Of a stretch of 64,000 nt of DNA, positions 9,168 through 60,547 are shown piece by piece. Numbering within the stretch: the first letter of the stretch is position 1; every line of letters starts with the position of its first letter. Source of the stretch: an uncultured archaeon (GTDB lineage Archaea; Thermoplasmatota; Penumbrarchaeia; JASLWR01); the NCBI GenBank assembly GCA_964423515.1, contig CAYRFL010000007.1, positions 1,448-65,447 of the forward strand, in the 5' to 3' direction. A program made the position numbers and the translations under genes. Under the pieces are notes generated by a model that made no database searches, had not been told where the DNA came from, and saw only the letters and a program-made list of their open reading frames with translations.

Positions 9168-9275
9168 TTTCGCTCCAATGTCATCGGTCCCAACGACAAT
9201 ACCGGAATAACGCTCCTCGGCTCGGAGAGAAACGACATCATAAACAACACGTTCATCTCGAACGTCGACTACGGG

Positions 9276-11330
9276 ATGGCTGCCGACATCGATTCCCGTG
9301 AGAATCTCATTTATGACAACAATTTCCTCGATAACAACGGCGACGGCGTGCAGGCCACCGATAACGGCACTGACAACAGGTGGAACACCTCCACCGGCGG
9401 TAATTACTGGTCGGACTGGATGACGCCGGACGATAACGGCAACGGAATAGTCGATGAACCCTACGAACTGGACGGGGACGCGGGAGCCAGCGACCTGCTG
9501 CCATTGACCGACGTTCCCTCCAACCCCATAGTAAGGGCCGACGCAGGCAGTGACATCACTGTGAACCAGCACCGCGAGGTGACCTTCAACGGCACGGGCT
9601 CCTGGGCAAACGCAGCCATCGTCAACTTCACCTGGAGCTTCGAATACGGGGGGATCGGCGTTCATCTATACGGGGAAAGACCATCCTTCCTGTTCCACGA
9701 TGCAGGAACCTACTCGGTGGACCTGCGGGTGCTGGACGCCCGGGGAAGGAACGACACGGACAACATGACCGTGAACGTGCTGGACACCGAGGCCCCGGTG
9801 GCATTGGCGGGACCGGATACGGTGATAAACAGGGGCGAGGCCTATCGTTTCAACGGAAGCGGCAGCACCGACAACACGAAGATAACGAACCTGACCTGGT
9901 CCTTCGAGTACGGTGGCGACGAGGTTCGCCTCTACGGGACGGATGCTTCATTCATTTTCGTCGTTCCCGGCATTTACAATATAACGCTGACGGTCATCGA
10001 TACCGGCGGCAACGTTCACCGGGATTATCTCACGCTCACGGTCCGAGACTCCGACCTTCCCATTGCCAGGGCGGGGAAGGACGTGACCGTGGAGCAGTAC
10101 GACAGGGTGAGCTTCGACGGCGGCACCAGCTTCGCCGTGGGATCGGCGAACCACACCTGGTCCTTCGAGTACGAGGGCAAGGATATCATTCTGTACGGTC
10201 CCACGGGCAGCTTTACATTCGTCGAGCCCGGGGAGTACAACGTCACCCTCAACGTCACCGACGGACAGGGAAGGTGGGACCTCGATCACCTCCTCGTGAC
10301 TGTAGAGGACGTCACTCCCCCGGTGGCGGAAGCGGGAACGAACAGAACGGTGAGCCCGGGGGATACGGTGGAGCTCGACGGGAGGACCAGCCGAGACAAC
10401 GTTGGTATCGACAATTACACCTGGACCATAGAGAGGAACGGGAGCGAGCTGTCGCTTTATGGCCCCCAGGTAACGCATCTCTTCGGCCTGCCCGGCATAT
10501 ACGGCGTTGCCCTTACCGTGAAGGACGAAGGAGGGAACAGCGACACCGACGAGATATTCATCAACGTGACGGGAGAAGGAACGGACGAGCCGGATAACGG
10601 CGACGGGAACGAGAGCGATTCCGACGGCGACGGCTGGAACGATACGACCGAGGAGAAATGCGGCACCGATCCTTACGACAACACGTCGTTCCCGGAGGAC
10701 ATGGACGGAGATGGAATACCCGATAAGCTGGACGGAGACATAGACGGTGACGGAGTTCCGAACGAGAAGGACGCCTACCCCAGGGACCCGGATAGATGGG
10801 AGAAGGAATCACACCTCCAGACCATACTGATCTTCGTGGGCCTGGGTCTTGTGCTGCTGATAGCGAGCATACTCGTGTACAGCAAGCTGAAGGGCCGGGA
10901 TATTCTCAGCAACGAGAAGAGGCAGATGATAGTGGATTACATCAACGAGCACCCCGGGGAGCATTACAGGGAGATCAAACGAAAACTGTCCATGCCCAGC
11001 GGCACGCTGCGCCATCACCTGAGAACCCTGGAGACCGCCTCAATGATAAGGGGCCATCGGGACGGTAAGTACCTGTATTATTTTCCGTACTCCGTGAGGA
11101 ACGTGCCCCCGGTGCTCACCCCTGCCCAGAAGGAGATCGTGGAGACCATCGGGAAGAGGCCGGGGCTCACGGCCCGGGAACTGGCCAAGAGCATGGGAAA
11201 GACCAGGAGGGCGGTGCATCATCACCTGTCCGAGATGTCCGATCTGGGCATCGTCCGGCCCGAGGCGAACGGTAAGGGCTCGTGCTGGCACCTGTCGGAA
11301 GGAGAGTGGAAGGGTGGGGAGCTTACATAG
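9276..11330 (+). CDS. beta-helix end + PKD domains + acidic Ca-binding-like DxDxDG repeats + TM + two cytoplasmic winged-helix domains (frame is open from 9168)
   Basis: Same frame as 7857..9167. Contains GGNYWSDWMTPDDNGNGIVDEPY, four to five PKD-like modules (WSFEYGG...LYG...G.Y.V.L.V.D), DSDGDGWND..DMDGDGIPD..DIDGDGVPN, a TM helix ILIFVGLGLVLLIASILVY, then INEHPGEHYREIKRKLSMPSGTLRHHLRTLE and LTARELAKSMGKTRRAVHHHLSEMSDLGIV. Confidence 0.8.
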   Translation: MAADIDSRENLIYDNNFLDNNGDGVQATDNGTDNRWNTSTGGNYWSDWMTPDDNGNGIVDEPYELDGDAGASDLLPLTDVPSNPIVRADAGSDITVNQHREVTFNGTGSWANAAIVNFTWSFEYGGIGVHLYGERPSFLFHDAGTYSVDLRVLDARGRNDTDNMTVNVLDTEAPVALAGPDTVINRGEAYRFNGSGSTDNTKITNLTWSFEYGGDEVRLYGTDASFIFVVPGIYNITLTVIDTGGNVHRDYLTLTVRDSDLPIARAGKDVTVEQYDRVSFDGGTSFAVGSANHTWSFEYEGKDIILYGPTGSFTFVEPGEYNVTLNVTDGQGRWDLDHLLVTVEDVTPPVAEAGTNRTVSPGDTVELDGRTSRDNVGIDNYTWTIERNGSELSLYGPQVTHLFGLPGIYGVALTVKDEGGNSDTDEIFINVTGEGTDEPDNGDGNESDSDGDGWNDTTEEKCGTDPYDNTSFPEDMDGDGIPDKLDGDIDGDGVPNEKDAYPRDPDRWEKESHLQTILIFVGLGLVLLIASILVYSKLKGRDILSNEKRQMIVDYINEHPGEHYREIKRKLSMPSGTLRHHLRTLETASMIRGHRDGKYLYYFPYSVRNVPPVLTPAQKEIVETIGKRPGLTARELAKSMGKTRRAVHHHLSEMSDLGIVRPEANGKGSCWHLSEGEWKGGELT

Positions 11331-17538: not shown

Positions 17539-19191
17539 TCAATATTGATATGGTGAAGGACAATTCACCCCTCCCTTCAGCACCTCCAGCATCATCCTCT
17601 TCATCTTCTTTTTCGTACCGTAGTCGTACACCACCTTCACCTTCTCCTTCGTTTCGGGGTGCATTCCGGTCCAGTACATGCACGTCGATGGCGTCATGGG
17701 CGTCGGAGTGAACAGCTGGAACTGCTCCACGTTCCGAAACTCGCGGGCCCTCTCCACAAGATGCCGCATCTCTTCCATGTCATCTCCCGGATGACCGATC
17801 ATGAAATAGTACCGGAGCGACATTCTCTTCCCGGTCGACAGCTCGTCCCACAGCCCCACGAAATCGTCAAAGCGGGAGTTGTCCTTGTTCATCAGGGCGA
17901 GGACCGGCCCGGAGAAATGCTCGGGAGCTATCTTGAGGGTGCCGGAGACGTGATGATCCACCAATTCCCTCACGTATTCCCTGCTCCGTAGTGCAAGGTC
18001 GTATCGTATCCCGCTTCTCACGAATATTTTCTTGACGCCCGGGACCGCCCGCGCCTCCCTCTGGAGCCGGATCAGCTTGTCGTGGTCAAGGTTCAGGTTC
18101 CGACAATCCATGCAATCATCACGACAGATCTTCTCAGAACCCGTATCGTGGCCCGTAACGCCACCCATATCGCAGCCCGTATCGCCACCCCTGTCGAAAC
18201 CTCTCCGGCAGTCCATCCCGTACATGTTGGCCGAGGGGCCGCCCAGGTCGTCGATGATCCCCCTGAAACCGTGATGCGATGCCAGACCTTCGATCTCCCG
18301 GAGTATGCTTTCCCTCGATCTCGAGATGATGCGATCGCCCTGCAGTAATCGCAGAGCGCAGAAGTTGCAGTTCCCGATGCACCCGCGATGGGTCACAACG
18401 CTGAAACGGGCCATCTTCAGCCCGGATTCCGGATGAAGCTTTCGCGTAAATGGCAGGGAATAGATTCGGTCAAGGTCCTCGGTGGTGTATTGTGGATACC
18501 TGTACTGGACCACGTAGTTGTTGTTGTACTCCTGGGCCAGGTCCCTGTCATTGGTGAGCCTGGCGGTCATCTCGCAGAATTTTTCCGGGTCGCCCGATAC
18601 CTCGCGAAAGGACGGCAGCTTCTCGGCGGAGCCAGGATCCTTTCTCAGTATGCACGTTCCCTCGATTCCGTCGAGACTGGCAGCGCCCGAGAGCCTCGAG
18701 GCAATCTCCACAATCTGCTTCTCGCCATTACCGTAAACGAGGATGTCGGCCCGGGAGTCCAGAAGGATGCTCCGCCTCAGCTTATTGTCCCAGTAATCGT
18801 AGTGCGCGAAACGCCGCAGCGACGCCTCCACGCCGCCCAGGACCATGGGGATGCCCTTGTACTTCCTCTTGATGAGATTGCAGTAGACGATGACCGCTCT
18901 ATCGGGGATCTGCCCGATCCGGTTGTGTTCGTCGCGGATCCGTTTACGCTTCATGGGAGTGTAGTTGTGCACCATTGAGTCAATGGAACCGGACGTGACG
19001 CCGAAGAACAAACGGGGGGGCCCGAGACGGGCGATGTCCTCCGCACTCTCCGGCTTCTCGATAATGCCGATGCTGTACCCTTCCGCATCCAGAACCCTTG
19101 CTATCACCCCCGCTGGCGACAGAGGGTGGTCGTCGTAGTACTCCGCGGTAACGAGGATGATGTCGTTCTCGGTGCCGGTTCGGGTTATCAT
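17539..19191 (-). CDS. ygiQ: YgiQ-family radical SAM protein
   Basis: The N-terminus LVTAEYYDDHPLSPAGVIARVLDAEGYSIGIIEKPE and the radical SAM core HRGCIGNCNFCAL fit the family. It carries a Gly/Asp/Cys-rich insertion. Confidence 0.85.
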   Translation of the reverse strand: MITRTGTENDIILVTAEYYDDHPLSPAGVIARVLDAEGYSIGIIEKPESAEDIARLGPPRLFFGVTSGSIDSMVHNYTPMKRKRIRDEHNRIGQIPDRAVIVYCNLIKRKYKGIPMVLGGVEASLRRFAHYDYWDNKLRRSILLDSRADILVYGNGEKQIVEIASRLSGAASLDGIEGTCILRKDPGSAEKLPSFREVSGDPEKFCEMTARLTNDRDLAQEYNNNYVVQYRYPQYTTEDLDRIYSLPFTRKLHPESGLKMARFSVVTHRGCIGNCNFCALRLLQGDRIISRSRESILREIEGLASHHGFRGIIDDLGGPSANMYGMDCRRGFDRGGDTGCDMGGVTGHDTGSEKICRDDCMDCRNLNLDHDKLIRLQREARAVPGVKKIFVRSGIRYDLALRSREYVRELVDHHVSGTLKIAPEHFSGPVLALMNKDNSRFDDFVGLWDELSTGKRMSLRYYFMIGHPGDDMEEMRHLVERAREFRNVEQFQLFTPTPMTPSTCMYWTGMHPETKEKVKVVYDYGTKKKMKRMMLEVLKGGVNCPSPYQY

Positions 19192-30689: not shown

Positions 30690-31973
30690 ATGATATACTT
30701 GACGCAGCTCGAAGATGCTGGAAGGGGAGTTATTACTCCGGAAATGTTGACCGTTGCCGATAACGAAGGAATGCATGTTGAAAATCTGTGTTCACTCGTA
30801 TCCCGGGGCTTCGTTGTGATACCGGCCAATATCAATCATAAGGGTCTTCGTCCCATAGGTATCGGAAAACAGCTTCGCATAAAGATTAATTCCAATATTG
30901 GCACAAGCCAGAACCGGTGTTCCATCGATAACGAGCTTGAGAAATTGAGGATCAGCATCGAAGCCGGGGCTGATACTGTCATGGACCTTTCCACCGCGGG
31001 CGATCTGGATGGGATACGCAGAACGATAATCGCCCATTCATCGATCCCGGTTGGCACCGTACCCATATATCATGTGATGGTGGAGCGTGACGAAACGGAA
31101 CATATCAGCGGAGACGATATGCTCTCGTCGGTGCGAAAGCACGCCGAGCAGGGCGTGGACTTCGTCACCGTTCATTGCGGTGTCACAGCCGATTGCATCT
31201 CCCTTCTGGACAGCAGGCTCCTGGGTGTCGTCAGCCGAGGCGGTTCATTTCTGGTCTCCTGGATGCGGATGCACGGGAAGGAAAATCCACTGTATGAGAG
31301 GTATGACGAGATCCTGGACATTGCCAGGGAATATGATGTCACCCTCAGTCTCGGCGACGGCCTTCGTCCGGGGTGCCTGCGGGATGCCACTGATGAGGCG
31401 CAACTCCACGAGCTAAGGGTACTCGGAAGCCTTGTTGAAAGGGCCAGGGAAGCGGGTGTACAGGTCATGGTGGAGGGCCCGGGCCACGTTCCGCTGGACC
31501 AGATCAGGCGCAACATCGAGCTTCAGAAGGAAATTTGCGCGGGAGCTCCCTTCTACGTGCTTGGCCCCCTGGTCACCGACGTGGCTGCCGGATACGATCA
31601 CATCGCAGGCGCCATCGGCGGGGCTCTGGCGGGATATTTCGGAGCGGATTACCTGTGTTATGTCACGCCGGCAGAGCATCTGAAGCTCCCCGAAGCACAG
31701 GACGTATGGGAGGGAGTAATGGCCTCGAGGATTGCAGCCCATGCAGCCGATATCGCAAGGGGTCTTCCGGGGGCCCGGGACTGGGACGACAGGATGTCTG
31801 CCGCAAGAGCCCGCCTTGACTGGGAAGCGCAGATACGAGAAGGAATGGATCCCAAGAAGTCGAGGCTCTACAGGGAGCAGTCCAGCATAGGGAAGGACGA
31901 CGTATGCACCATGTGCGGGAAGTACTGTGCCATCAAGCTACACAGGGCCAAGGCTCTGAAGGAAGCAGAATAG
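30690..31973 (+). CDS. thiC: phosphomethylpyrimidine synthase ThiC (short archaeal form)
   Basis: 427 aa. ITPEMLTVADNEG, KINSNIGTS, DTVMDLSTAG, VTVHCG, VSRGGS, MVEGPGHVP and the C-terminal CTMCGKYCAIK cluster motif are present. Confidence 0.95.
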   Translation: MIYLTQLEDAGRGVITPEMLTVADNEGMHVENLCSLVSRGFVVIPANINHKGLRPIGIGKQLRIKINSNIGTSQNRCSIDNELEKLRISIEAGADTVMDLSTAGDLDGIRRTIIAHSSIPVGTVPIYHVMVERDETEHISGDDMLSSVRKHAEQGVDFVTVHCGVTADCISLLDSRLLGVVSRGGSFLVSWMRMHGKENPLYERYDEILDIAREYDVTLSLGDGLRPGCLRDATDEAQLHELRVLGSLVERAREAGVQVMVEGPGHVPLDQIRRNIELQKEICAGAPFYVLGPLVTDVAAGYDHIAGAIGGALAGYFGADYLCYVTPAEHLKLPEAQDVWEGVMASRIAAHAADIARGLPGARDWDDRMSAARARLDWEAQIREGMDPKKSRLYREQSSIGKDDVCTMCGKYCAIKLHRAKALKEAE

Positions 31974-36934: not shown

Positions 36935-38011
36935 TTGCCCTCCATGACGGCAGACAATGAATACACGGGAATGCTGGATGAATCCATACTGAGCTTGTTC
37001 AGGAGAACACTGAGGTTCGCCGGCAGCCCCGCTCTACTCCGCTTCCTGATAACCACTGCGGCAAACCAGAAGAAGGCCTCGAAGAGAAGGGCAAAATGGG
37101 GCAAGAATGGGTTACGCGTGCCCCCCTTCATGATAGCGAGCATCACCCGGAAATGCAATCTCCACTGCAAGGGGTGCTATTCACGGATACTGAACAGCAC
37201 TGAAAAGGAAGAGATGACCACGGACGATTTCAGGAGATTGTTCGAAGAGGCCGGGGAGCTGGGGATATCCATCATACTTCTGGCCGGAGGTGAGCCCTTC
37301 ATTCGCCCCGACGTCATAGAGATGGCCGGGAAGTTTACCGATATCATCTTCCCCGTGTTCACCAATGGTTTACTTTTAGATGACCGGATGCTTGACAGTA
37401 TCAAGGGAAAGAGGAATATCATACCGGTGCTCAGCCTGGAAGGTGGGCGAAAAGAAACGGACGGCCGCAGGGGTTTGGGCGTTCACGGGGCGATTTCGGA
37501 AGTCATGGCCAGGCTGGAGGACAGGAAAAAAATATACGGCGTATCCATCACGGTCACCACATCCAACCTCGCGGACGTAACCGATCCGGGATTCATCGGG
37601 GAACTGGCGGACGGGAAGTGCAGGTTGTTCTTCTTCGTCGAGTATATACCGGTAAAGGAAGGGACCGAGCACCTGGAGATAGGCGCATCCGACCGAAAAA
37701 TGCTTCTCTCGGCCCTGGAGGCACTGGAGGATCGCCATCCTTCCCTTTTCATCGCGTTTCCGGGTGACGAGGAGAGATTCGGCGGCTGCCTTTCGTCGGG
37801 GCGGGGATTCGTTCACGTCAGCCCGTCGGGGGATCTGGAGCCGTGCCCCTTCGCTCCCTATTCGGACCGCAACATCAGGGAAATGGCCCTCAAGGATGCC
37901 CTGCGCTCTGCGCTCCTCGGCACGATACGCTGCAGTCGCGAGAGATTGAACGAGGTGGAAGGAGGATGTGCGCTCTGGAAAGAGCGTGCATGGGTTCGTT
38001 CGCTGCTCTAG
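36935..38011 (+). CDS. radical SAM protein with C-terminal Cys-containing (twitch/SPASM-like) region
   Basis: CNLHCKGC (CX3CX2C), LLAGGEPF, and C-terminal GGCLSSGRGFVHVSPSGDLEPCPFAP. Paralogous in layout to 56898..58376. Stop codon is TAG. Confidence 0.85.
   Translation: MPSMTADNEYTGMLDESILSLFRRTLRFAGSPALLRFLITTAANQKKASKRRAKWGKNGLRVPPFMIASITRKCNLHCKGCYSRILNSTEKEEMTTDDFRRLFEEAGELGISIILLAGGEPFIRPDVIEMAGKFTDIIFPVFTNGLLLDDRMLDSIKGKRNIIPVLSLEGGRKETDGRRGLGVHGAISEVMARLEDRKKIYGVSITVTTSNLADVTDPGFIGELADGKCRLFFFVEYIPVKEGTEHLEIGASDRKMLLSALEALEDRHPSLFIAFPGDEERFGGCLSSGRGFVHVSPSGDLEPCPFAPYSDRNIREMALKDALRSALLGTIRCSRERLNEVEGGCALWKERAWVRSLL
37961..38005 (+). repeat. direct repeat, left copy (last codons of the radical SAM gene)
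   Basis: 37970..38005 is identical over 36 nt to 43690..43725 (GCGCTCTGGAAAGAGCGTGCATGGGTTCGTTCGCTG). GGAGGATG lies just upstream in both copies. Confidence 0.9.
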
Positions 38012-38152: not shown

Positions 38153-40711
38153 CTACAACCTTGGATCGACCGCTTCGCTCTCCATGGCCAATACGGCAAA
38201 TACGCATTCATGGATTTGTTTTAAGGGTCGTTTTTCAATGAAGCGTTCGAGAGCTTCAATTCCAAGAACGAACTCATTGATGGCCAGCTTCCGCTTCTTT
38301 CTCAAGAAGCGTTTCTTCAAACGTTTTAAATTATTTGTATCCGTATAATCCGGGCCATATATTATTCGAAGGTATTCCCGCCCCCGACATTTGATGGCAG
38401 GCTGAATTAGATTCCCCTTGTTTCGAGTCTTATATTCTATAGGTTTAATAACCATACCTTCCCCCCCTGCCTCTGTCAATTCTGTCCACCATTTGACTGT
38501 ATCTCCAATACTGTCTTCGTCGTCGAGGTCTGTGATGTGATACGGAGTTTCTTTGAATAAGGAGGGATCCGATTTTACTATCTTGCCAATGTGTTCCATA
38601 TGCCAGATGTGGTTTTTATCGGTGTGGACTTTACCCTCTGTTGCCATGATATGGAACGGAGCCAACTTGATACCGTTCAATCCCTTGACTGAAGTGCAAT
38701 AATGATGATAGGTGGAAATATATTTCTTGATATTATTATGCTTCTTTTGAAAGGTTCTTTCAATTTTATCGATATCAAGTCCCCTCTCACTGCCCTTGTG
38801 AAGGAGGGGCATTATCTCCGACAAAGAATAATCTCCAGTGGTCCCAGTGGCCGCGTATTGGTCAATTATCAGATTATTTGCCTTCAATGACCAGGGCATG
38901 AGTTCGCAATCCAAACAAACCCAGTCGGTTTCGAACTTTTCCCAGAAACCCAGAGAGGTTAACACTGCCCCAATCCTTTGGAGAAACTCGTTTTCCAGCT
39001 CTTTTTCATCGAAGAAACGTCTGCCGGTACGGGTATAGCATATTCCAATTTCGTCGCCAAGAATCCCGAATCGGGTTCGGGATACCTCGGCATCTTTGCA
39101 TACGATGACTATTGTCCTTGAACCCATGTGTTTCTCTTCGCAAATGACCTTCCGGATTCCCTTCTTTTTGTAGTACTTTAGAGCCTCATCAGGGTGTTCC
39201 AAATATTCATCAAGATCGGTGGTATCCGGGGGTGACATCGTCGGTGGAAGGTATATCAGCCACTTTGGATTAACAGCATAGCGAGTCATTACCTCAAGTG
39301 CGGCAATGGAGTTCTCTTCCTGAACGATTACCTTTTTTTTGTACCTAGTATGAACGATAATCTTTCCGGACACGTCCGAGAGATCCAACACATCATCATG
39401 CTCCTGCTGTAAAGACAACAGGGGTTTTACTTCCACCAGCGGTTTAATTGGCATATAGTATACCCGCTTTGCCGAAACAGATACAACATCATTCTCAGGG
39501 TATCTCAATGCAGTTAATTTTCCACCAAAAACACAACCTGTATCGATATTGATGGTATTGTTCAACCATTCCGGTTCAGGGACTGGTGTGTGGCCGTATA
39601 CAACAATTGCCTTACCTTTGTATTCCGAAGCCCAGCTGTACCTAACCGGCAGCCCATAATCGTCGATTTCCCCGGTGGTTTCACCGAACAGGCAAAATGA
39701 CCTCACGGCTGCCGAGCCGCGTCCTTGCATATCCTCCCTCAGTCCAGCATGTGCTACGACAAGGTTCCCACCGTCAAAAACGCTATGGCTTACCAGATTT
39801 CCAATGAACACCAGGATTGCATCCTTGACAGATGCATCTATACCTTTTAGTTCTTCAAGTGTCTCCGCCAGGCCATAATCCGTTTTCACCCTATGTCCTT
39901 TCAAAGTCCTTTGCAGTTTTATGTCATGATTTCCCGGAACACAAAAGGCGATTCCACTGTTTACCATCCACATGACCAACCTTAGGACAGTCAGTGAAGA
40001 GGGACCTCTGTCAACCAGGTCTCCAAGGAATATGACCCTACGACCGCCTGGATGACTTATTCCTTTTAAATCTCCATGGTGTGTGAACTCAAGGATATAC
40101 CCTAACTTGTCCAGTAATTCGATCAATTCGGTATGGCATCCGTGGATGTCACCTATGATATCGAATGGAGGCCTTTCATGCTTTTTATTGTTGAAAAGGG
40201 GTTCAAGGATGATCTTGACGTTTTCAATATCATCGGGTTCCAGAATGAAGCGATGTCGAAAACCCTCCCTCTTTATCTGTTTCAGAGATCTCTTGAAATC
40301 ATGAAATTGATTTGAAATAAAGTGTGAGCCAAAATCTCTATCGTCGCGGTCTTTATGCCGTTGTTTCAACGTTGATTCGGGAACGTTGAATCCGATGATA
40401 ACAGGAAAAAAATGATAATCTTTGGCCAATATGACCAATGTCTTTCTTGATGAGGGTTTAACGTTTGTAGCATCGATTACAGTTAATTTACCTCGTTTCA
40501 ATCTCTTTGCCGCAAGAAAATGGAGCAGATCAAACGCATCAGCAGTCGCTTCCATCGAATTTTCATCGTCCGACACCAAGGCCCGGCATCTATCGGATGA
40601 TATTATCTCGGTTTCCTTGAAATGGGTGTGTGCAAAATGGGTTTTTCCCGAACTGCTCGGGCCCATCAATAGGATGAATGAAAGTTCCGGTATCCTGATA
40701 TCCATGTTCAA
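38153..40711 (-). CDS. pnkp: polynucleotide kinase-phosphatase Pnkp (kinase + metallophosphatase + ligase-like adenylyltransferase)
   Basis: P-loop GPSSSGKTHF. Calcineurin-type motifs GDIHGC, GDLVDRGP and GNHD. Ligase motif-I-like EEKHMGSR. 852 aa, with a 4-nt overlap with hen1. Confidence 0.85.
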   Translation of the reverse strand: MNMDIRIPELSFILLMGPSSSGKTHFAHTHFKETEIISSDRCRALVSDDENSMEATADAFDLLHFLAAKRLKRGKLTVIDATNVKPSSRKTLVILAKDYHFFPVIIGFNVPESTLKQRHKDRDDRDFGSHFISNQFHDFKRSLKQIKREGFRHRFILEPDDIENVKIILEPLFNNKKHERPPFDIIGDIHGCHTELIELLDKLGYILEFTHHGDLKGISHPGGRRVIFLGDLVDRGPSSLTVLRLVMWMVNSGIAFCVPGNHDIKLQRTLKGHRVKTDYGLAETLEELKGIDASVKDAILVFIGNLVSHSVFDGGNLVVAHAGLREDMQGRGSAAVRSFCLFGETTGEIDDYGLPVRYSWASEYKGKAIVVYGHTPVPEPEWLNNTINIDTGCVFGGKLTALRYPENDVVSVSAKRVYYMPIKPLVEVKPLLSLQQEHDDVLDLSDVSGKIIVHTRYKKKVIVQEENSIAALEVMTRYAVNPKWLIYLPPTMSPPDTTDLDEYLEHPDEALKYYKKKGIRKVICEEKHMGSRTIVIVCKDAEVSRTRFGILGDEIGICYTRTGRRFFDEKELENEFLQRIGAVLTSLGFWEKFETDWVCLDCELMPWSLKANNLIIDQYAATGTTGDYSLSEIMPLLHKGSERGLDIDKIERTFQKKHNNIKKYISTYHHYCTSVKGLNGIKLAPFHIMATEGKVHTDKNHIWHMEHIGKIVKSDPSLFKETPYHITDLDDEDSIGDTVKWWTELTEAGGEGMVIKPIEYKTRNKGNLIQPAIKCRGREYLRIIYGPDYTDTNNLKRLKKRFLRKKRKLAINEFVLGIEALERFIEKRPLKQIHECVFAVLAMESEAVDPRL

Positions 40712-42189
40712 TCATCCTCCCGGGATTTGTGTTTGAACACCGCCATCTGGGTGGGAGATCCGAATTCGGAATGAACATCGCCTATTGATTGGAGCGTTAC
40801 AGAGTAATCATAATCGGAACCGACCCGTTCCACCCATGAAGTGAATTGATCTCTTGACCATTCGAAACGATGGTCAGGATGACGGTACTCCGAAGGATTT
40901 TCTAATCCATAGACCGGATTGTACTCTCTATTGGGCGTTGTCAAGATCACATTGACAGGTCTGGCGAATTTGAAAACCACCTTCTCAAGATCGATGAGCC
41001 GATCCGGGTCAATGTGCTCGATCACCTCAAGAATCACAGCGATATCGGATCCCTTTAACCGTTCATCGCGATAGAGGAGTGACCCATGAATAAAATCTAT
41101 TCTCGCCTTCATCTTTGGCGACATCTCGTCCATGTACAGTCGGGCCTTTGCGCGTTGTAAGGATCGATACGATACATCCATACCAATTATTTTAGGAAAT
41201 CTGCTATATTTCAACCTTAGTTCAATAAGTCTGCCATCGCCACAACCCAGGTCAAGAACTTTTTTCCCACCCAATTGCCTTAGCGTTTCCATTACTGCTC
41301 GGTATCTCTGCTGATTCAGGTTCTCGGTGATGTTCGATTTTACTGGATTTGAGCTCACTTCATCATTATGATTTTGATTCTCATCCGCCAGTAATCGATC
41401 TAAGGCCATCTGCGTAAGGGTTCTGATATGTTTTAGAAAATACTTGGTAATGACCTCGACCTCCGGATGAGCGGGGAGCCAATCGGAACCTTTCTCCAAT
41501 AAAACGTCCACATTCTGCTTGGATATCCAGTAATGTCTTTGTCTGTCGAAGACAGGTATCAATATATGAAGCTGAGAGAGGAGATCTTTTAGGAGAATTT
41601 TGTTTGTCAATGCTATCGAGTAATAGTCGCTATCCCCCCATTCAGGATTTATCGGGTCGACAGGCAACCGATGTATATCCAGGTCGTATCCAAGCGGTTC
41701 GAACATTCGTCTGATGAATTCCTCTCCGCCTTTAACATTGATTGGAGATAATTTACATCGAAGGGGCATTTCGATATCTGTAAGTTCCGGCCTCGCTTTA
41801 CAATTACCATTCATTGCAGTTCCATATACTTTCGAAATGGCACTGCTCATGAAGGACGAAGCCACATATGGCCTGTCATTGACATAATGTTTCAGCAAGG
41901 AGTAATCGACCGGGATTCTCAGAACCCTGACAAGATCGATATTGTTGATGTCGATCAGTAGCGTCGCCGTGCATCTTTCTTCTGTGGCTTCGGGGTAAAA
42001 GACCACTGCTTTTCCCCCAGAGATATTGAATGACTGCACCTTGTCAGGATGCTTGTGCAGTAGATAACCCAAATCGGTTGCCGGTGAATGTGTTGTCGTG
42101 ATAGTTAACTCCAATCTACCTAACTCCAATTCCATAAAACCAATTACTGTAAAAGACAATAGGGCGAGCGATTTTAAATATTGTGTCAA
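40708..42189 (-). CDS. hen1: 3'-terminal RNA ribose 2'-O-methyltransferase Hen1 (bacterial type, with N-terminal ligase-activating domain)
   Basis: SAM motif VLDLGCGDGRL and metal/active-site motifs ILEVIEHID and HPDHRFEWSRDQF. 493 aa. Lies immediately upstream of pnkp and is coupled to it. Confidence 0.85.
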   Translation of the reverse strand: MTQYLKSLALLSFTVIGFMELELGRLELTITTTHSPATDLGYLLHKHPDKVQSFNISGGKAVVFYPEATEERCTATLLIDINNIDLVRVLRIPVDYSLLKHYVNDRPYVASSFMSSAISKVYGTAMNGNCKARPELTDIEMPLRCKLSPINVKGGEEFIRRMFEPLGYDLDIHRLPVDPINPEWGDSDYYSIALTNKILLKDLLSQLHILIPVFDRQRHYWISKQNVDVLLEKGSDWLPAHPEVEVITKYFLKHIRTLTQMALDRLLADENQNHNDEVSSNPVKSNITENLNQQRYRAVMETLRQLGGKKVLDLGCGDGRLIELRLKYSRFPKIIGMDVSYRSLQRAKARLYMDEMSPKMKARIDFIHGSLLYRDERLKGSDIAVILEVIEHIDPDRLIDLEKVVFKFARPVNVILTTPNREYNPVYGLENPSEYRHPDHRFEWSRDQFTSWVERVGSDYDYSVTLQSIGDVHSEFGSPTQMAVFKHKSREDD

Positions 42190-50841: not shown

Positions 50842-52956
50842 TCAGGCCACACCGGGCGGACGTGCGATCAGGTCAGGTGCTTTGTTTTCCCTGGGATCCT
50901 CGCTCTCCCCCTCGCCCACCTTATCTCCGACAACCGAATCCCGGCTCATCGCTGCCATTGCATCGCGCAAAGGTTCATTGCTGCGGGTGACCTTATTTCC
51001 CATGACCCTCAGGAGCCCCCTGGCACCGCATACTCTGCACTTTATCGTAGTGGGTCTTCTGGACGTATATATATCGATTGTGGCGCCGCACCTGCAGGGA
51101 GCCCGATACAGTACCTTTTCCTTCTTTCCGCGTTTGCTTCCTCGGCTTTTTACATCCTTATCTTCCATTTCCCCTCGGCGGTAACGGATAGTATGATGAT
51201 AATATCTGGGTGAACCCCGATGTTCCCGCGATGATATGAGCCCCGCCATTTTCAAGTTCGCCAGGTGTGTCTTGGTCACGGTTCTCTTCAATCCCAGGGC
51301 TTTCCTCAGTTCGCGGACGTTTGCCCCGGGATGTTCTTTGATGTAATTCTCAATCCCCTTCCTTTCATTACCGGTCAAGGCAACGAAGATCACGAATAAG
51401 ACACACAGGAGGATCAGGAGCACTACCCCTATAAGAACTGGTAAGAGAGTTGTGGGATCGGAGGTCTCCTCGTCGTCTTCCCCCGACCTCTCCGGATCGC
51501 GTGGATATGCATCTTCTTTGTTCGAATATCCGTCGCCGTCCAGATCGAGTGGTGTCGAAACAGGATTCATCGGGTCGCTCCCAGCCTCCTTCTCTGCGGC
51601 GTTCGTCCACCCGTCGTCGTCGGAATCGGCCAGCTCGTCCGGCAGGGGTGGCTTGGTGAAATCCATTGGCGGAAGCTCGACGGGAGGTTCCGCCATAGGC
51701 AACAGGTCGAAGGCACCGCCCTCGCCGTCCATGGTATACGGGGAGTCGACGATGCCGTTCCCATCGTCGTCCGGTCCAGTCCAGTCGGACCAGTGATTCC
51801 CGCCGCTTTCATCGTTCCAGTCGTTGTCGCCGTCGTCGGTGGCCTGTCCGTTCTCCCCGGCGTTCTGTAGAAACGAATTGGAGTGGAATGAATTTCCGGA
51901 TGTGCTTGAGGCCGCCCTGACGCCGTGAACGTTGCCCCCGAAGACGCATTCGGATACGGTATTTTCCTCAGAGTACTTTAGGAGCATTCCGTACCTCCCG
52001 TTGTCCGCCGACAGGATGTTCTTCAGTACGCTGCGATAGCAATGGTACAGGTGAAGCCCGTTATCGCCGTTCCTGGCTGCCGTACAGTTCAGGACCGCAC
52101 TGTCCGTGCTCATGACGTATATCCCGTCCATGTCGTTTCCGGAACAGTTGCATTCCCTCATCGTCACGGAGTTGGAATCGAATATGTATATGCCGCTCTT
52201 GCCGTTGTCATTGCACGTATAATTATCCAAAAGCAGGTCATTGGACAGCCAGTACGCATAGAATCCGTGATTCAGGTTCAGGTTGCACGTACCGTCCGCG
52301 AATACGTTGTCGTAGGAGTAGAACAGGTGTATGCCCGTACCACCGTTCTCGTCGCAGCGGCAGCCCCGTATCTCGTTACGGACCGCTCCGCCCATGATCA
52401 TCCCGACCCAGCCGTTCCGGGAGAGGTTACACGACCGGATGAGGTTGCCGCTGGAGTTGGTGATGGATAGCCCCATAAGATTGCCGGTACAGCGGCATTC
52501 GGCTACCGTGTTGTTGCCGGATCGTATGAGAATACCATTCCTGGCGTTCCGCGCGGTGATCCCGCGTATGGTTATGTTGTCGGCTGCCAGTTCGAGGGCA
52601 TATTCTCCGCCCATACCGTCGATTATCGCCTCCTGTCCTTCCTCTTCCGGACCGTTCACTGTCTGACCGTTCTTCGCTGGTCCGTTATCCTCCGGGCCCA
52701 GTATGGTCAGGGGCCGGTCGATCACGACGTTCTCGAGGTAAGTCCCGGGTCTGATGCGTATGGTATCGCCGTCCGTGGAGCCTTCGATGGCCGAGCTGAT
52801 GTTGAGATAGTCCCCGCTTCCGGATATGTCGACTATCAGTTCGCGCATAACCCTTTTCGATCCCGCTCCCGGCCGTGTTTCACCCTCCGTGGATGAAGGA
52901 AGGATGACGAGCATAATTACGAGGGCGGCCAACGGTAATATGGTCCGGGCATCCAT
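50842..52956 (-). CDS. surface beta-helix (PbH1) protein + TM + cytoplasmic winged helix + zinc ribbon
   Basis: Start MDARTILPLAALVIMLVILPSSTEG. PbH1 repeats, GGNHWSDWTGPDDDGNGIVDSPY and DSDDDGW..DLDGDGYSN. TM helix LLPVLIGVVLLILLCVLFVIFVAL. Then IKEHPGANVRELRKALGLKRTVTKTHLANLKMAGLI and CRCG..x15..CRVCG. Confidence 0.85.
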   Translation of the reverse strand: MDARTILPLAALVIMLVILPSSTEGETRPGAGSKRVMRELIVDISGSGDYLNISSAIEGSTDGDTIRIRPGTYLENVVIDRPLTILGPEDNGPAKNGQTVNGPEEEGQEAIIDGMGGEYALELAADNITIRGITARNARNGILIRSGNNTVAECRCTGNLMGLSITNSSGNLIRSCNLSRNGWVGMIMGGAVRNEIRGCRCDENGGTGIHLFYSYDNVFADGTCNLNLNHGFYAYWLSNDLLLDNYTCNDNGKSGIYIFDSNSVTMRECNCSGNDMDGIYVMSTDSAVLNCTAARNGDNGLHLYHCYRSVLKNILSADNGRYGMLLKYSEENTVSECVFGGNVHGVRAASSTSGNSFHSNSFLQNAGENGQATDDGDNDWNDESGGNHWSDWTGPDDDGNGIVDSPYTMDGEGGAFDLLPMAEPPVELPPMDFTKPPLPDELADSDDDGWTNAAEKEAGSDPMNPVSTPLDLDGDGYSNKEDAYPRDPERSGEDDEETSDPTTLLPVLIGVVLLILLCVLFVIFVALTGNERKGIENYIKEHPGANVRELRKALGLKRTVTKTHLANLKMAGLISSREHRGSPRYYHHTIRYRRGEMEDKDVKSRGSKRGKKEKVLYRAPCRCGATIDIYTSRRPTTIKCRVCGARGLLRVMGNKVTRSNEPLRDAMAAMSRDSVVGDKVGEGESEDPRENKAPDLIARPPGVA

Positions 52957-53035
52957 TATAAGAAAGATACGCAAGGATTCTATATATTGTCGACGGTGAT
53001 TAGTTCGATAAAAGTCGAAGCCTTTCGAGTAACGG

Positions 53036-53265
53036 TTTGCCGATGCCCGTTGACACTCCGCAAACCCCTTCGGGCTTTGCTGCACCCTCGGCATGTATAC
53101 CTACGGGTTCACGCCTCGGCACCCGCAGGGTAACGCCCCGAGGGTGCAGGGGCATATTATGCCCCGGAGTGAAACGGGCAAATACAGGCGTATCTTGATA
53201 CGCCAGGACCCGAAAGGACCAGATGCATCTCTGATGCATAGGATTTTCAGCTTGACAATGTGTGC
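53036..53265. other. densely hairpin-forming non-coding region (possible structured RNA or long 5' leader)
   Basis: An 11-bp inverted repeat 53081..53091 / 53138..53148 encloses a 9-bp stem-loop. Hairpins lie at 53060..53080 (C-UUCG-G loop), 53149..53165, 53187..53204 and 53223..53239. A closing helix pairs 53036..53051 with 53173..53182. Confidence 0.3.
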
Positions 53266-56781: not shown

Positions 56782-56897
56782 GTTCGCGGGATCGCAGCCC
56801 GTAGGGACCGATTCCGCTGAATAAATGAAAAAAGGGATTAAGGAAATTATTTAATTGGTGTGGAACCTATCCTGTACCCCTGAAGGGAGGGATCCGA

Positions 56898-58376
56898 TTG
56901 GTCAAGTTCTTAACCGGCATGTCAAAGGAATTCGTAATGCTGAAGATGTTCAAGAAGAAGGAGGTCCGGAACCTCGATAAGAAGTTCCTCTTCTATCTGA
57001 GGGAATCCTCGAAATACGAGAAGTTCGTGGAGATCGACGGAAAGGTGGTGATGAACTCCCAGATGCCGCCCTTCGGCACGGTTGCATTCGACAGGTTCAT
57101 CAGCAGGATATCGCAGATGAAGAAGGGTGAGAAGTTCCCCCTGTCATGCAACATAGCGGTGACCAACCGATGCAACTATGACTGCTGGCACTGCAGCAAC
57201 TGGGGCCGCGAGGAGATCGAGGATTTTCCCCTGGAACTACTGAAAGACACCATCTGGAAGCTTCAGGACATGGGCAATTCCTTTATCGGCCTTACCGGGG
57301 GGGAGCCCACTCTCAGGGACGACCTCGAGGAGATCGTGGAGGCCATCGGCGACAAGTCACATACCATACTTTTCACCAACGGCGAGCGTTTGCCTTACGA
57401 GAGGGCCAGGGAATTGAAGAGGAGAGGTCTCTTCAGCGCTTCCATCAGCCTCGACCATCACACGGCCGAGGTACACGACAGGCTTCGCGGATACGAGGGA
57501 GCGTTCGACATTGCCGTGAAGGCCATCAAGGCCTCCAACAGGGCGGGTCTCTATACCATCGCGGGGGCGGTCCCGACCAGGGAGATGATAAACGCGGGGG
57601 AGGTGCCGGAGTATTATCGGTTCCTCAAGGATATCGGAGCGCACGAGGTGAGGGTCCTGGCGCCGATACCCACGGGGAGGCTGGTGGGAAACCAGGAAGC
57701 GAGATGGTGCGGCAGGGACGAGGAGAAGCAGATGTGGGAATACCACAAGAAGCTCAACAAGGATAAAAATTATCCCAAGATCAGCGAGTATTCGTATATC
57801 GAGAGCGAGGGGATACTTGGATGCATGGCCGGCACCTATCACATGTTCATCGAGAACGACGGCACGGTAACTCCCTGCGACATGATCCCACTCTCGTTCG
57901 GGAACGTGAAGGAGGAAGGGATCGAGGCCGCCTACAGGGCTATGTCGGAGAGGTACCAGATTCCAAGGCACGTATGCTATGTTCGGGCGGCACACGCCCT
58001 CTTCAAGAAGGGATTCGACAAGGAGGGACGTTTCCCGCTCTCCAGGGAGACCGCCATGGAGATCACGGGCAAGGTGAGGAACCGCAGAATGCCGGAGTTC
58101 TTCAAGAAGCTCGGAGTGCCCGAACCGGTGTTCGAGGAGAAGGTGGCAAAGAAGCCCAAAAGGGAGAACATCGACCTTCGTGGATTGGAATGCCCCGAGC
58201 CCGTATGGAAGACCCAGGACCGGATATGGGATATGGAGGCGGGAACCCTTGAGGTGCTAGTGGATAACGAGGATTCCAGGGACAACGTGAAAGCCACGGC
58301 CCAGGACGAGGGTTGGAGCGTGAAAGTACAGAACAAGGATGACGGGGAATACCTTTTGATACTGACAAAGAAGTGA
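56898..58376 (+). CDS. radical SAM enzyme (twitch/SPASM-like auxiliary Cys region) fused to a C-terminal TusA/SirA-like domain
   Basis: CNYDCWHC (CX3CX2C), LTGGEPTL and GCMAGTYHMFIENDGTVTPCD. The C-terminus IDLRGLECPEPVWKTQDRI..LEVLVDN carries the TusA CPxP motif. The TTG at 56898 follows GGGAGGG. Confidence 0.85.
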   Translation: MVKFLTGMSKEFVMLKMFKKKEVRNLDKKFLFYLRESSKYEKFVEIDGKVVMNSQMPPFGTVAFDRFISRISQMKKGEKFPLSCNIAVTNRCNYDCWHCSNWGREEIEDFPLELLKDTIWKLQDMGNSFIGLTGGEPTLRDDLEEIVEAIGDKSHTILFTNGERLPYERARELKRRGLFSASISLDHHTAEVHDRLRGYEGAFDIAVKAIKASNRAGLYTIAGAVPTREMINAGEVPEYYRFLKDIGAHEVRVLAPIPTGRLVGNQEARWCGRDEEKQMWEYHKKLNKDKNYPKISEYSYIESEGILGCMAGTYHMFIENDGTVTPCDMIPLSFGNVKEEGIEAAYRAMSERYQIPRHVCYVRAAHALFKKGFDKEGRFPLSRETAMEITGKVRNRRMPEFFKKLGVPEPVFEEKVAKKPKRENIDLRGLECPEPVWKTQDRIWDMEAGTLEVLVDNEDSRDNVKATAQDEGWSVKVQNKDDGEYLLILTKK

Positions 58377-58387
58377 GGGGATTTGAT

Positions 58388-58978
58388 ATGACGGAGGAAC
58401 TTGACCTGAGGGGCCTGAAGTGCCCGGAACCCGCCATCAGGACCGGGAAGGCCCTGCGGAATTCGGACGACCTCCTGGTGGTGGTGGATGACGAGACGGC
58501 GATTCAGAACATCTCCCGCGGCGTCAAGGCCCGCGGATACGAGGTGGACGTGGAGAGGTCCGGGAAGGACTGGTACATGCGCATCACCCGGGTCGAGGGG
58601 ACGTCCGGGAACGAGGTGGAGTTCGATCTTTCCTGTGCATTGGGTCCCACGATCCTCTTCTTTCCGGCAGATACCATAGGACGGGGGGACGACGAGTTGG
58701 GCGGGATATTGGTAAACTCCATAATATATTCCCTCCTTGAGCTTGAGAGCAGACCGGATGCCATCATATTCATGAACAGCGGCGTCAGGCTCGCGGTGAA
58801 GGGGGCCCGGCCCCTGGATGACCTGAAAAGACTGAACGAGGAAGGCGTCGATATCCTCGTATGCGGGACCTGCCTGGACTATTACGGCCTGAAGGATGAT
58901 CTGGCCGTAGGAGAGATATCCAATGCATATACCATCTCCGAGACCCTCCTTGGGGCCGGAAAGGTAGTGAGATTCTGA
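58388..58978 (+). CDS. yedF: YedF-like protein (TusA-like N-domain + DsrE-like C-domain)
   Basis: MTEELDLRGLKCPEPAIRTGKAL, then ILFFPADTIGRGDDELGGIL...IIFMNSGVRL...ILVCGTCLDYYGL. The ATG at 58388 follows GAGGGG. The track's GTG at 58373 overlaps the upstream stop codon. Confidence 0.8.
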   Translation: MTEELDLRGLKCPEPAIRTGKALRNSDDLLVVVDDETAIQNISRGVKARGYEVDVERSGKDWYMRITRVEGTSGNEVEFDLSCALGPTILFFPADTIGRGDDELGGILVNSIIYSLLELESRPDAIIFMNSGVRLAVKGARPLDDLKRLNEEGVDILVCGTCLDYYGLKDDLAVGEISNAYTISETLLGAGKVVRF

Positions 58979-59026
58979 GCCGGCGCACCGTCATTTTTGG
59001 AAAGATGCTCCTTTCGGGTGTGGATG

Positions 59027-60180
59027 ATGATATATTTCGATAATGCGGCGACTGGTTGGCCCAAGCCCAATTGCGTAATGGAGGCCATGAACGATTTTCT
59101 CGTCAACGTGGGCGCCAATCCGGGCCGCTCGGGCCATCGCCTTTCCGTGGAGGCAGGCAGGATCGTCTATCGTGCCCGGGAGAACGTCGCCAGGCTGTTC
59201 AACCTTGAGGATCCCCTGCGGGTGGTATTCTGTTCCAACGCCACCGCCGCCCTGAACCTGGGGATCAGGGGCATACTGGGAAAGGGCGATCACGTCATCA
59301 CCGGCAGCATGGAGCACAACTCGGTGATGCGCCCCCTTCAGGATGTCGGCCGCGAGGGAGTGAAGACAACGGTGGTCCAATGCGACGCCGAGGGTTTCCT
59401 CGACGCGGAGAAGATAAACGAGGCCATAAGACCAGATACGAGATTGATCGTGCTGAACCACGGTTCCAATATCGTTGGAAGCCTTGCCCCCGTAAGAAAG
59501 GTGGGAATCATCGCCCGTGACGCGAACGTACTGTTCATGATCGACAGCGCCCAGACGGCGGGATGCGTTCCCGTCGATATGGAAAGGGACAATATCGACA
59601 TGGTCGCCTTCACCGGTCACAAGGCTCTCATGGGCCCCCAGGGCACGGGCGGTCTCGTCATCGGCAGCGGCGTGGACGCGGGTCGCATAGAAAGAATGGG
59701 ATCGGGTGGGACTGGCAGCAGGTCCGAATCCGACGTTCACCCGGATTTCCTCCGGACAAGTACGAGAGCGGGACCCTCAACACCGTGGGTCTTGCCGGGC
59801 TTGCCGCAGGGATCGGATACGTTCTGGATCGAGGGGTGGAGCATATTCACGAGAAGAACACGGGTCTCGTAAGGAGGTTCATCCGGGGTGCTGCGGGCGT
59901 GGAAGGATTGAAACTGCATGGATGTTCGGAAGGTCGGGATAGGACCGCCACGGTCTCGTTCACCATGGATGATCTGTCACCGTCCGAACTGGGGCTGATA
60001 CTTGACGATGAATATGACATAATGAGTCGTGTGGGGCTTCACTGCGCTCCCAATGCGCACAGGACCATAGGTACGTTCCCGCAGGGGACCGTGAGGTTCG
60101 GCATGGGCTATTTCAACCGTCCGGAGGAAGTGGATGCTGCCATAGAGGCCCTGGGCGGTCTCGCGGTGGAAGGGCGATGA
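59027..60180 (+). pseudogene. class-V aminotransferase: cysteine desulfurase / selenocysteine-lyase-like, interrupted by an apparent -1 frameshift near 59752
   Basis: MIYFDNAATGWPKP, PLP-lysine FTGHKALMGPQG and active-site GLHCAPNAH. Frame 1 ends ..SESDVHPDFL and frame -1 continues PDKYESGTLNTVG. Joined, they give the expected DFLPDKYESGTLN. Confidence 0.75.
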
Positions 60181-60313
60181 TAGGGATGAGAATGATCGGG
60201 TGAGCAGGGATGGACTTCATGAAGCACGGAGTCAGCGGCTCCGCACGAGACTGTCGTGGATATACGTGATGAGGATATCACGAAACCCGGCTCCGGTAAA
60301 CAGGTGAGCAGAG

Positions 60314-60547
60314 ATGGACGATGATTATCTGGTGATCCTATTCGATTCCACAAACGGTGCCATTCGGGCCGAGCAGGTCGCGATCGATGCGGGGTTCGAG
60401 GTAAGATTGATACCGACGCCCCGTTATATCAGCACGGATTGCGGGGTGGTGCTGCGGATCCGGGAGAGGGACCGTGACGGGGTACTGAAAGAATTCCGTG
60501 CGAGGAAGGTGGACCACAACGAGGTCGTCCGTGCCAGGCCGAAATAG
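60314..60547 (+). CDS. DUF3343-like putative Se/S carrier protein
   Basis: 77 aa. The pattern LVILFDSTNGAIRAEQVAIDAGFEVRLIPTPRYISTDCGVVLRI, with its single conserved Cys, fits the family. Confidence 0.75.
   Translation: MDDDYLVILFDSTNGAIRAEQVAIDAGFEVRLIPTPRYISTDCGVVLRIRERDRDGVLKEFRARKVDHNEVVRARPK

Follow-up and report, generated by a model that had tools for sequence, protein, structure and literature searches.

A radical SAM enzyme carrying its own TusA domain is linked to sulfur/selenium trafficking genes in Thermoplasmata

Within a 64-kb stretch of DNA from an uncultured archaeon of the Thermoplasmatota (assembly GCA_964423515.1, contig CAYRFL010000007.1, positions 1,448 to 65,447; hereafter 'the window'), four co-directional genes on the forward strand encode, in order, a radical S-adenosylmethionine (SAM) enzyme ending in a TusA domain, a YedF protein, a class-V pyridoxal phosphate (PLP) lyase and a DUF3343 protein, separated by gaps of 11, 48 and 133 nt (Table 1). 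We consider it moderately probable, judging from comparative sequence evidence, that this cluster is an operon for trafficking sulfur or selenium, and that the radical SAM–TusA enzyme itself would be what it supplies. This reading draws on features that are established: what the domains are, that TusA is fused to the enzyme and that this fusion recurs, the linkage of the genes, the conservation of their cysteines and the exchange of TusA for a cysteine-bearing tail in sister proteins. For more than 10 years YedE, YedF, DUF3343 and the lyases of the EF2568/SclA type have been regarded as selenium or sulfur traffickers of undefined destination, and a carrier fused to an enzyme names a candidate destination for that system. 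Further, the sulfur source of radical SAM enzymes (a sacrificial cluster or an external donor) has long been debated, and an enzyme with a built-in persulfide carrier or, as in the sister proteins, a flexible cysteine tail lends itself to addressing this question.

Genes were called from an open reading frame (ORF) listing and domains were assigned with Pfam and NCBIfam profile hidden Markov models (HMMs), which verify the positions and domain calls of all four genes in an initial annotation made from the sequence alone. The association of the four is not due to chance, given the HMM E-values and the presence of the same gene set in 12 further distinct loci (11 fused, 1 unfused). The start residue of the radical SAM–TusA protein matches that of its homologs (MVKFLTG). 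Its Radical_SAM domain (PF04055, residues 88-220) scores 81.8 bits against a cutoff of 29.5 (E = 8e-23), and both the cysteines C92, C96 and C99 of its CNYDCWHC motif and the SAM-binding GGE-type motif T133-G-G-E-P137 are invariant or nearly so, which places it in the radical SAM superfamily. A SPASM match follows (residues 309-347, 33 bits, cutoff 21.5), spanning positions 1-44 of the 67 in the profile; the second SPASM half, a CX2CX5CX3C block, is absent from the protein, which falls short of the seven cysteines of a full SPASM domain. Because only the first half is present, the domain is twitch-like with a single auxiliary cluster. Across an 83-sequence family alignment C92, C96, C99, C309, C327 and C360 are invariant, which confirms the auxiliary-cluster-like cysteines recognized initially; three constant ligands and a missing second SPASM half suggest that C309, C327 and C360 probably ligate one auxiliary Fe–S cluster with an open iron site. 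Two further cysteines have narrower distributions in this alignment: C84 occurs in most Thermoplasmata members and in no others, while C271 is shared by all 22 fused proteins and missing from all 61 unfused ones, and may serve either in the relay or as the auxiliary cluster's fourth ligand.

The C-terminal domain is a genuine member of the TusA family, as the initial annotation had proposed from its CPEP cysteine. PF01206 matches residues 424-491 with 57.6 bits against a cutoff of 28.6 (E = 1e-15), and C432, carried by the motif LECPEP, is invariant in 23 aligned fused sequences together with P433 and P435. AlphaFold predicts the whole protein with high confidence, TusA domain included (predicted local distance difference test score, pLDDT, 94; predicted template modelling score 0.90), the domain itself adopting a beta-alpha-beta-alpha-beta-beta TusA fold at pLDDT 84-94. 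The fused domain is nearest to the small TusA proteins that stand beside YedE in related loci (72-84 bits) rather than to the N-terminal TusA domain of YedF (26-37 bits).

The fusion is old and recurrent, and its neighbours recur with it. In protein searches of four independent sources (JGI, ENA, NCBI and Logan), full-length fused proteins at 59-78% identity fell into about 28 clusters, all ascribed to uncultured Thermoplasmata. A scan of genomes gave five fused loci (four from Thermoplasmata/Thermoplasmatota metagenome-assembled genomes (MAGs) and one from an unclassified archaeon) and three unfused relatives (one Methanomassiliicoccales and two Thermoplasmatota MAGs); a metagenome scan yielded one useful additional locus. 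In a HMMER search over 1.84 billion representatives, one full-length 50%-identity cluster matches through TusA, and nearly all other matches stop by about residue 405-414, the three longer ones being short fragments of fused proteins. The fusion therefore marks one narrow clade within an enzyme family of about 244 clusters (E ≤ 1e-30). A word-index search with the 94-residue linker plus TusA as query gave no matches, a result that is uninformative on other TusA fusions.

To define neighbourhoods, the window proteins were compared with six-frame ORFs of the fetched loci and with precomputed Pfam lists. The window and each of the 11 further distinct fused loci that were compared have relay genes adjoining the enzyme, in three arrangements. 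In type A (the window, L001, L006, L007, L010, L016 and L018) the order is radical SAM–TusA, YedF, lyase, DUF3343, save that L018 has no lyase and that the contigs of L001 and L006 end at the lyase, with DUF3343 beyond view. In type B (L002/L003, L008, L009 and L014) the order is YedE, small TusA, radical SAM–TusA, lyase, DUF3343, with YedE abutting the enzyme directly in L008, where no free TusA lies between. The third arrangement, in L017, packs this gene set into 6 kb, with most of it on the opposite strand, and adds two DsrE proteins and a 127-aa helix-turn-helix (HTH)-like protein. Genes outside the module vary between loci. That the module's own genes have stayed together despite rearrangement, in proteins that are only about 60% identical, speaks for selection and not just for inheritance.

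The strongest argument that a mobile C-terminal cysteine delivers something to the active site comes from comparison with enzymes that lack the fusion. In the nearest unfused relatives (P0030, P0032 and P0037-P0041, 50-55% identity), an acidic low-complexity tail stands where TusA would be, and these tails hold one to three copies of a GGCMG(A/S)L motif (e.g. the enzymes at L012 7088-8506 and L013 4914-6368); to our knowledge no carrier motif of this kind has been described. In the AlphaFold model of P0040 the core is confidently predicted (pLDDT >93) and the tail is disordered from residue 444 onwards (pLDDT <50). Since the sisters swap TusA for a disordered cysteine tail, the conserved feature is the mobile cysteine. 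Relay or DsrE-type genes lie near both kinds: the tail-type enzyme of L012, 52% identical, has YedE, a small TusA, a lyase and DUF3343 about 1.5-4 kb upstream, and that of L013 keeps DsrE-like neighbours. There are thus two routes to a C-terminal mobile cysteine, each with relay-type genes close by.

The partner proteins in the window keep their catalytic residues, as do their counterparts across the loci. YedF has the TusA plus DsrE architecture in Pfam, scores 187 bits on TIGR03527 (cutoff 110) and shares its CPEP and CGTC motifs with YedF of eight related loci, in agreement with its initial description as a YedF-like protein. The 77-aa DUF3343 protein is likewise what it had been taken for, with 68.7 bits on PF11823 (cutoff 25) and a PTPRxxSxDCG motif, cysteine included, that is conserved in 11 loci. 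The lyase is more complicated. It had been read as a single ORF for a class-V PLP enzyme with an HCAP cysteine; its identity stands (TIGR01977, GLHCAP), and its continuity does not, a 1-nt frameshift having been overlooked. The span 59027..60180 measures 1154 nt, not a multiple of three, and comprises two overlapping frames, 58997-59872 and 59563-60180. The sequence GATTTCCTNCCGGACAAG (DFLPDK), present in five homologs, appears in the window as GATTTCCTCCGGACAAG, with one base missing at about 59750-59752. With one base re-read, the gene encodes 384 aa, equal in length to intact homologs, and scores 452 bits on TIGR01977 (cutoff 377), whereas each half alone falls under that cutoff. The repaired protein gives 358.8 bits on the SclA model NF040779, well short of its cutoff of 525, and is thus a member of the broader TIGR01977 family as judged by its profile scores, not of the SclA model itself. 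The PLP lysine K199 (TGHK) lies in the first frame and the cysteine of RVGLHCAP in the second, both intact. Past the deletion the reading frame shows no loss of conservation, so that the lesion is either recent or a sequencing error in a run of C.

A second disrupted gene occurs in the window, at 7857-11330 (+), where an in-frame TAG at 9165-9167 splits one apparent long gene. Its NosD/beta-helix repeats run over the stop (profile positions 71-162 before it and 158-209 after it), and it ends in four PKD domains and a C-terminal HTH. The TAG could be a nonsense mutation or a site of read-through; with the lyase frameshift it makes two disrupted genes in 64 kb, so that assembly quality and pseudogenization are both in play.

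What the enzyme does is best approached through its relatives, none of which is close. Its best NCBIfam model, AhbD, gives 109.5 bits against a cutoff of 500, and the 25 best models each fall 3- to 15-fold under cutoff, so that a check against radical SAM families of known function places it in none of them. The best solved structure is SkfB (26% identity), with SuiB, BlsE, CteB, viperin, MoaA and anSME among the others; AbmM, a twitch radical SAM sulfurtransferase, is the structural match of rank 49 (8wm2; sequence E = 2e-4). Full-text literature searches turned up no description of a radical SAM–TusA enzyme, nor of a radical SAM enzyme with YedF or DUF3343, consistent with the earlier remark that this architecture is uncharacterized.

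Several specific assignments were considered and rejected. A typical maturase of ribosomally synthesized and post-translationally modified peptides (RiPPs) is set aside, because an all-against-all comparison of small ORFs from 14 loci revealed no conserved small ORF or precursor peptide, only known genes and antisense shadows. Membership in the ArsL family, an idea that arose from the methyltransferase, GNAT and major facilitator superfamily partners of the wider enzyme family and from Cys-rich motifs near alignment column 271, is also rejected: there is no RCCLKC motif, and the 25 top-scoring NCBIfam models do not include NF040542. Thiolation of a methylthio-naphthoquinone (methionaquinone) is given at most a very slim chance. 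A polyprenyl synthetase adjoins the enzyme in L008, L012 and L013, UbiE-like methyltransferases are fused to it in the wider family, and the enzymes of the methionaquinone pathway have not been identified in the literature; against this, no named cultured Thermoplasmatales protein is among the 120 best homologs, and type-A loci have no synthetase.

We infer the order of the relay, its direction toward the enzyme, the docking on the auxiliary cluster, the insertion chemistry and the kind of substrate as follows. The PLP lyase would move sulfur or selenium from cysteine or selenocysteine onto its own active-site cysteine, with the membrane protein YedE and a small TusA perhaps providing a second entry route in related loci. 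The resulting persulfide or perselenide would pass through DUF3343 and YedF to the tethered C432, which may then bring the terminal chalcogen to the active site, most likely docking at the auxiliary cluster's open iron and possibly by way of C271. A SAM-derived radical would activate a substrate encoded outside the cluster, and a C–S or C–Se bond would form. A hand-off of this type, ending at the radical SAM enzyme, was the central claim of the initial annotation, and recurrence, linkage and the invariant C432 support it comparatively. On the three points that the annotation had named as able to overturn it, the TusA domain proves conserved, the gene order recurs and the enzyme lies outside the families of known function.

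A number of observations weigh against this reading. The flanks of the locus contain nothing that points to a substrate, and the frameshifted lyase means that the operon may be impaired in this genome, unless the lesion is a sequencing error. The one sister locus examined that lacks both tail and TusA (L004, Methanomassiliicoccales) has no relay genes nearby, nor do the loci of several bacterial relatives, which implies that the ancestral reaction of the family need not use an external chalcogen donor. Homologs outside Thermoplasmata, at 35-42% identity, come from Omnitrophota, Deltaproteobacteria, Spirochaetota, Clostridia, Asgard and DPANN MAGs, and there the main partner is a class-I SAM methyltransferase rather than a relay: it adjoins the enzyme in L005 and L020, and is fused to its N-terminus in P0140 and P0199 and to its C-terminus in P0143, P0164, P0175 and P0190. 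Asgard-type loci have a GNAT gene downstream (GNAT was seen at L019, L024 and L025), L019 of the wider family also has, as a point in favour of a relay, a divergent rhodanese–TusA gene alongside the enzyme, and the distant-homolog loci L021-L023 have no informative neighbours. The relay connection looks like a specialization of the Thermoplasmata branch.

Other explanations of the same loci have to be weighed. The relay might instead re-sulfurate, after each turnover, an auxiliary cluster that is itself sacrificed as sulfide donor, as in BioB, LipA and AbmM, an account that differs from delivery by C432 in its last step alone and that sequence cannot separate from it. The sulfur-donating clusters of LipA and MiaB have three-cysteine ligation, and here too only three auxiliary ligands are invariant; AbmM is among the distant structural matches, and a neighbouring dedicated desulfurase would suit repair equally well. 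Nevertheless, known routes of Fe–S cluster repair run on the scaffold carriers NfuA and IscU and not on TusA-type carriers, and the adjacent YedE, a transporter of the selenium-linked clade, is left unexplained, so that we regard rebuilding of the cluster as unlikely. The flow might also run the other way, the radical SAM enzyme freeing sulfur or selenium from an organic compound, or another unreactive one, and loading its own TusA, then YedF and DUF3343, for assimilation. TusA-type carriers work in both directions, sequence does not reveal which applies, and selenium starvation in Methanococcus switches on YedE, TusA and a system for demethylating methyl-selenide. However, YedE and the lyase already supply two entry points and there is no other obvious consumer, which leaves the radical SAM enzyme as the only candidate sink; moreover, the linkage holds in loci without YedE, and we know of no radical SAM C–S or C–Se lyase that feeds assimilation. 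Reverse flow is accordingly judged quite improbable.

About as improbable is a maturase of the SkfB, CteB or anSME type that modifies a carrier cysteine, for example to a thioether, in its own TusA domain or tail, in DUF3343 or in YedF. The nearest solved relatives (SkfB, SuiB, CteB and anSME) do form thioethers or oxidize cysteine, the substrate cysteine of CteB binds the open iron of its auxiliary cluster, and the repeated GGCMG tails look like fused core peptides, but a fused substrate would allow a single turnover, the loci have no conserved precursor ORF, DUF3343 and YedF are widespread in bacteria without this enzyme, and the similarity to these maturases is generic (17-26% identity, template modelling score about 0.46). 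Finally, the gene order could simply be inherited, TusA serving a structural or regulatory role in an enzyme whose reaction has nothing to do with sulfur or selenium trafficking. The fused loci form one clade and are not independent, since all collapse into a single 50%-identity representative, and an M28 peptidase, a GNAT and a polyprenyl synthetase likewise keep their place near the enzyme with no evident role. Yet the linkage survives at least three reshufflings of gene order while the flanks beyond the module differ among loci, the carrier cysteine and its CPxP motif are invariant, and the sisters have arrived independently at a cysteine tail in the same position; we therefore find this explanation very improbable indeed.

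The proposed operon can be placed among systems already described. With MiaB/RimO/MtaB, LipA, BioB and AbmM the enzyme would share a radical SAM core, an incompletely Cys-ligated auxiliary cluster and, as proposed here, formation of a C–S bond at an unactivated carbon. It differs from the first three groups in that Pfam finds neither UPF0004 nor TRAM and no methylthiotransferase, BioB or LipA model is among the best NCBIfam matches (the 25 best, for methylthiotransferases), and none of these enzymes, AbmM included, has a fused persulfide carrier or an operon with lyase, YedF and DUF3343. As in the TusA–TusBCD–TusE–MnmA and Rhd–TusA–DsrE2 relays, where the CPxP cysteine of TusA hands a persulfide to DsrE/TusD-type proteins, both folds are represented here, joined in YedF, and DsrE2-like neighbours occur in L008, L012, L013 and L017; the acceptor in those relays is a PP-loop thiouridylase or DsrC/sHdr, whereas here it would be a radical SAM enzyme to which the final carrier is covalently joined. 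The best peptide-modifying matches (SkfB, CteB, SuiB and anSME) share the CX9-15GX4C half-motif, and the enzyme is set apart from them, beyond its low identity and the missing precursor, by having one predicted auxiliary cluster.

A genomic parallel is the YedE/YedF/DUF3343/SclA set of bacteria, in which the same four families (TIGR04112, TIGR03527, PF11823 and TIGR01977) are just as tightly clustered; there the set lies beside selD and its acceptor is undefined (PMC5322559), whereas here a radical SAM enzyme joins it and no selD occurs in the window or the annotated loci. The same 2015 survey reported no YedF in archaea and described their YedE as divided between two genes (PMC5322559). In the loci studied here archaeal YedE is unsplit, being a single gene of about 370-430 aa in L002 (8339-9628), L008, L009, L014, L017 and L012, and full-length archaeal YedF is also present. 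YeeE/YeeD (TsuA/TsuB; fusion PDB 8k1r) similarly combine a YedE-family membrane protein with a small TusA whose cysteine accepts the chalcogen, and it is such a small YedE partner that the fused TusA domain most resembles; the YedE proteins here differ in reaching only 30 bits on the TsuA models. In ArsL, which cleaves SAM to a 3-amino-3-carboxypropyl radical and forms a C–As bond, a C-terminal cysteine tail holds As(III), a parallel to the TusA domain and GGCMG tails, and a class-I methyltransferase is its partner as in the wider family (bioRxiv 10.1101/2024.02.01.577332). However, ArsL has RCCLKC at its extreme C-terminus, CX3CX2C at residues 194-201, a single cluster and no twitch domain, and we keep it by analogy as a mechanistic comparison only, not as a family assignment.

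Whether the relay carries sulfur or selenium is nearly balanced, and we lean slightly to selenium on sequence grounds, since the families represented in the relay are all selenium-linked. The type-B YedE proteins score 450 bits on TIGR04112 (seleno_YedE, putative selenium transporter; cutoff 200) as against 30 bits on the thiosulfate transporter TsuA models (cutoffs 400 and 645), and the models matched by YedF (TIGR03527) and by the lyase (TIGR01977) are both selenium-linked. EF2568/SclA, the founder of TIGR01977, is selenocysteine-specific in vitro, cysteine acting as a competitive inhibitor, and YedE is found only, and YedF almost only, in SelD-containing organisms (Lin et al., 2015; PMC5322559). 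That survey also bears out the initial annotation, which had called YedF, DUF3343 and the lyase markers of selenium or sulfur trafficking, although it recognizes no selenium-specific subfamily of DUF3343. A dedicated transporter, lyase and carrier chain would, in addition, suit a scarce and toxic element better than sulfur in a sulfidic habitat. The lyase position equivalent to H99/H100 of SclA (His-Asn here) was considered as a sign of selenium specificity and rejected as not diagnostic; SclA H100 mutants, H100N included, show a less than 2-fold change in selenocysteine kinetics.

Other evidence tells against selenium. The 64-kb window contains no selD, selA/B, yedE or tRNA-Sec (selenocysteine tRNA), and no selD was found in the annotated loci or in the scanned flanking ORFs. 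SelD-bearing archaea have been reported only from Methanopyrales, Methanococcales, Halobacteriales and Methanomicrobiales (PMC5322559), with selenocysteine decoding also in Asgard, and Thermoplasmata are not among the known selenium users. The DsrE2-like neighbours recall the relays of sulfur oxidizers, and a crenarchaeal gene set of SelD-like protein, TusA and COG2210 is thought to handle sulfur. If selenium is nonetheless the element, selenium biology would reach Thermoplasmata, possibly with SelD-free chemistry, and if SelD is truly absent the system would be categorically new, beyond both sulfur-inserting radical SAM enzymes and TusA relays. The boldest version, in which these Thermoplasmata use selenium without selenophosphate, a selenium-specific relay that starts from YedE import or an SclA-type lyase and runs through DUF3343 and YedF loading perselenide on TusA for the radical SAM enzyme to make a C–Se bond directly, is rather unlikely; it would amount to a fourth, SelD-independent selenium-utilization trait and a first radical SAM selenium-insertion enzyme, in a class not known for selenium use.

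Table 1. Positions of genes, motifs and candidate signals of the radical SAM–TusA cluster in the window.
Feature	Position	Strand	Basis and remarks
Candidate archaeal promoter, AT-rich TTATTTAA box	56847-56854	+	Putative; read from sequence
Candidate ribosome-binding site, GGAGG	56886-56890	+	Putative; 7 nt ahead of TTG start
Radical SAM/twitch enzyme with C-terminal TusA, 492 aa, TTG start	56898..58376	+	Pfam, alignment, AlphaFold
CX3CX2C motif, C92/C96/C99, binds SAM-cleaving [4Fe-4S] cluster	57171..57194	+	Invariant, 83 family members
C271, RWCG motif	57708..57710	+	Cysteine restricted to TusA-fused clade
Twitch (half-SPASM) region, C309-x12-G322-x4-C327 and C360	57822..57977	+	Pfam and alignment
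TusA domain, residues 421-491	58158..58370	+	PF01206; carrier C432 of CPEP at 58191-58193
YedF, 196 aa	58388..58978	+	CPEP at 58421-58432; CGTC at 58862-58873; TIGR03527
Class-V PLP cysteine desulfurase/selenocysteine lyase, TIGR01977 family	59027..60180	+	1-nt deletion at about 59750-59752
DUF3343/Se_S_carrier, 77 aa	60314..60547	+	PF11823; C43 in PTPRYISTDCG

The candidate promoter and ribosome-binding site are inferred from the sequence itself; a sigma-70 promoter scan of the region is uninformative for an archaeal host. Beyond the relay genes themselves, a few other proteins recur in or near the clusters. A conserved protein of about 127 aa lies inside several of them (L002 7470-7853; L012 5982-6398; L017 6795-7178 and 9037-9411), with an N-terminal PCE, a SQY(L/T)HGVRG motif and C-terminal cysteines; it has no match in Pfam or NCBIfam and may be a regulator. 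Orthologs of the M28 peptidase, GNAT and polyprenyl synthetase recur near the enzyme in L004, L008, L012, L013, L014 and L017, a set that is absent from the window and present also in one locus without relay genes, and that may be either a hint at the substrate or mere inherited synteny. About 6 kb downstream of the cluster in L002 (17389-18348) and L003 (7786-8745) is a 319-aa protein whose sole match is EF-Tu domain 2, which may be a SelB-like factor of the kind found in archaea lacking selenocysteine.

The window also holds three further radical SAM genes, at 17539-19191 (-), 30690-31973 (+) and 36935-38011 (+), encoding respectively a YgiQ-like protein (Radical_SAM_N plus DUF3362), ThiC and a 358-aa enzyme of no recognized type; in L018 the gene immediately upstream of the fused enzyme is the YgiQ-like one. 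At 50842-53094 (-) and 9276-11330 (+) are surface-type beta-helix/PKD proteins with a C-terminal winged helix (HVO_0163-like), an unusual pairing of extracellular-looking domains with an HTH. Finally, the region 38153-42189 (-) encodes a bacterial-type Pnkp/Hen1 RNA-repair pair in an archaeal context, consisting of an 852-aa kinase-phosphatase-ligase and a 493-aa Hen1 methyltransferase.

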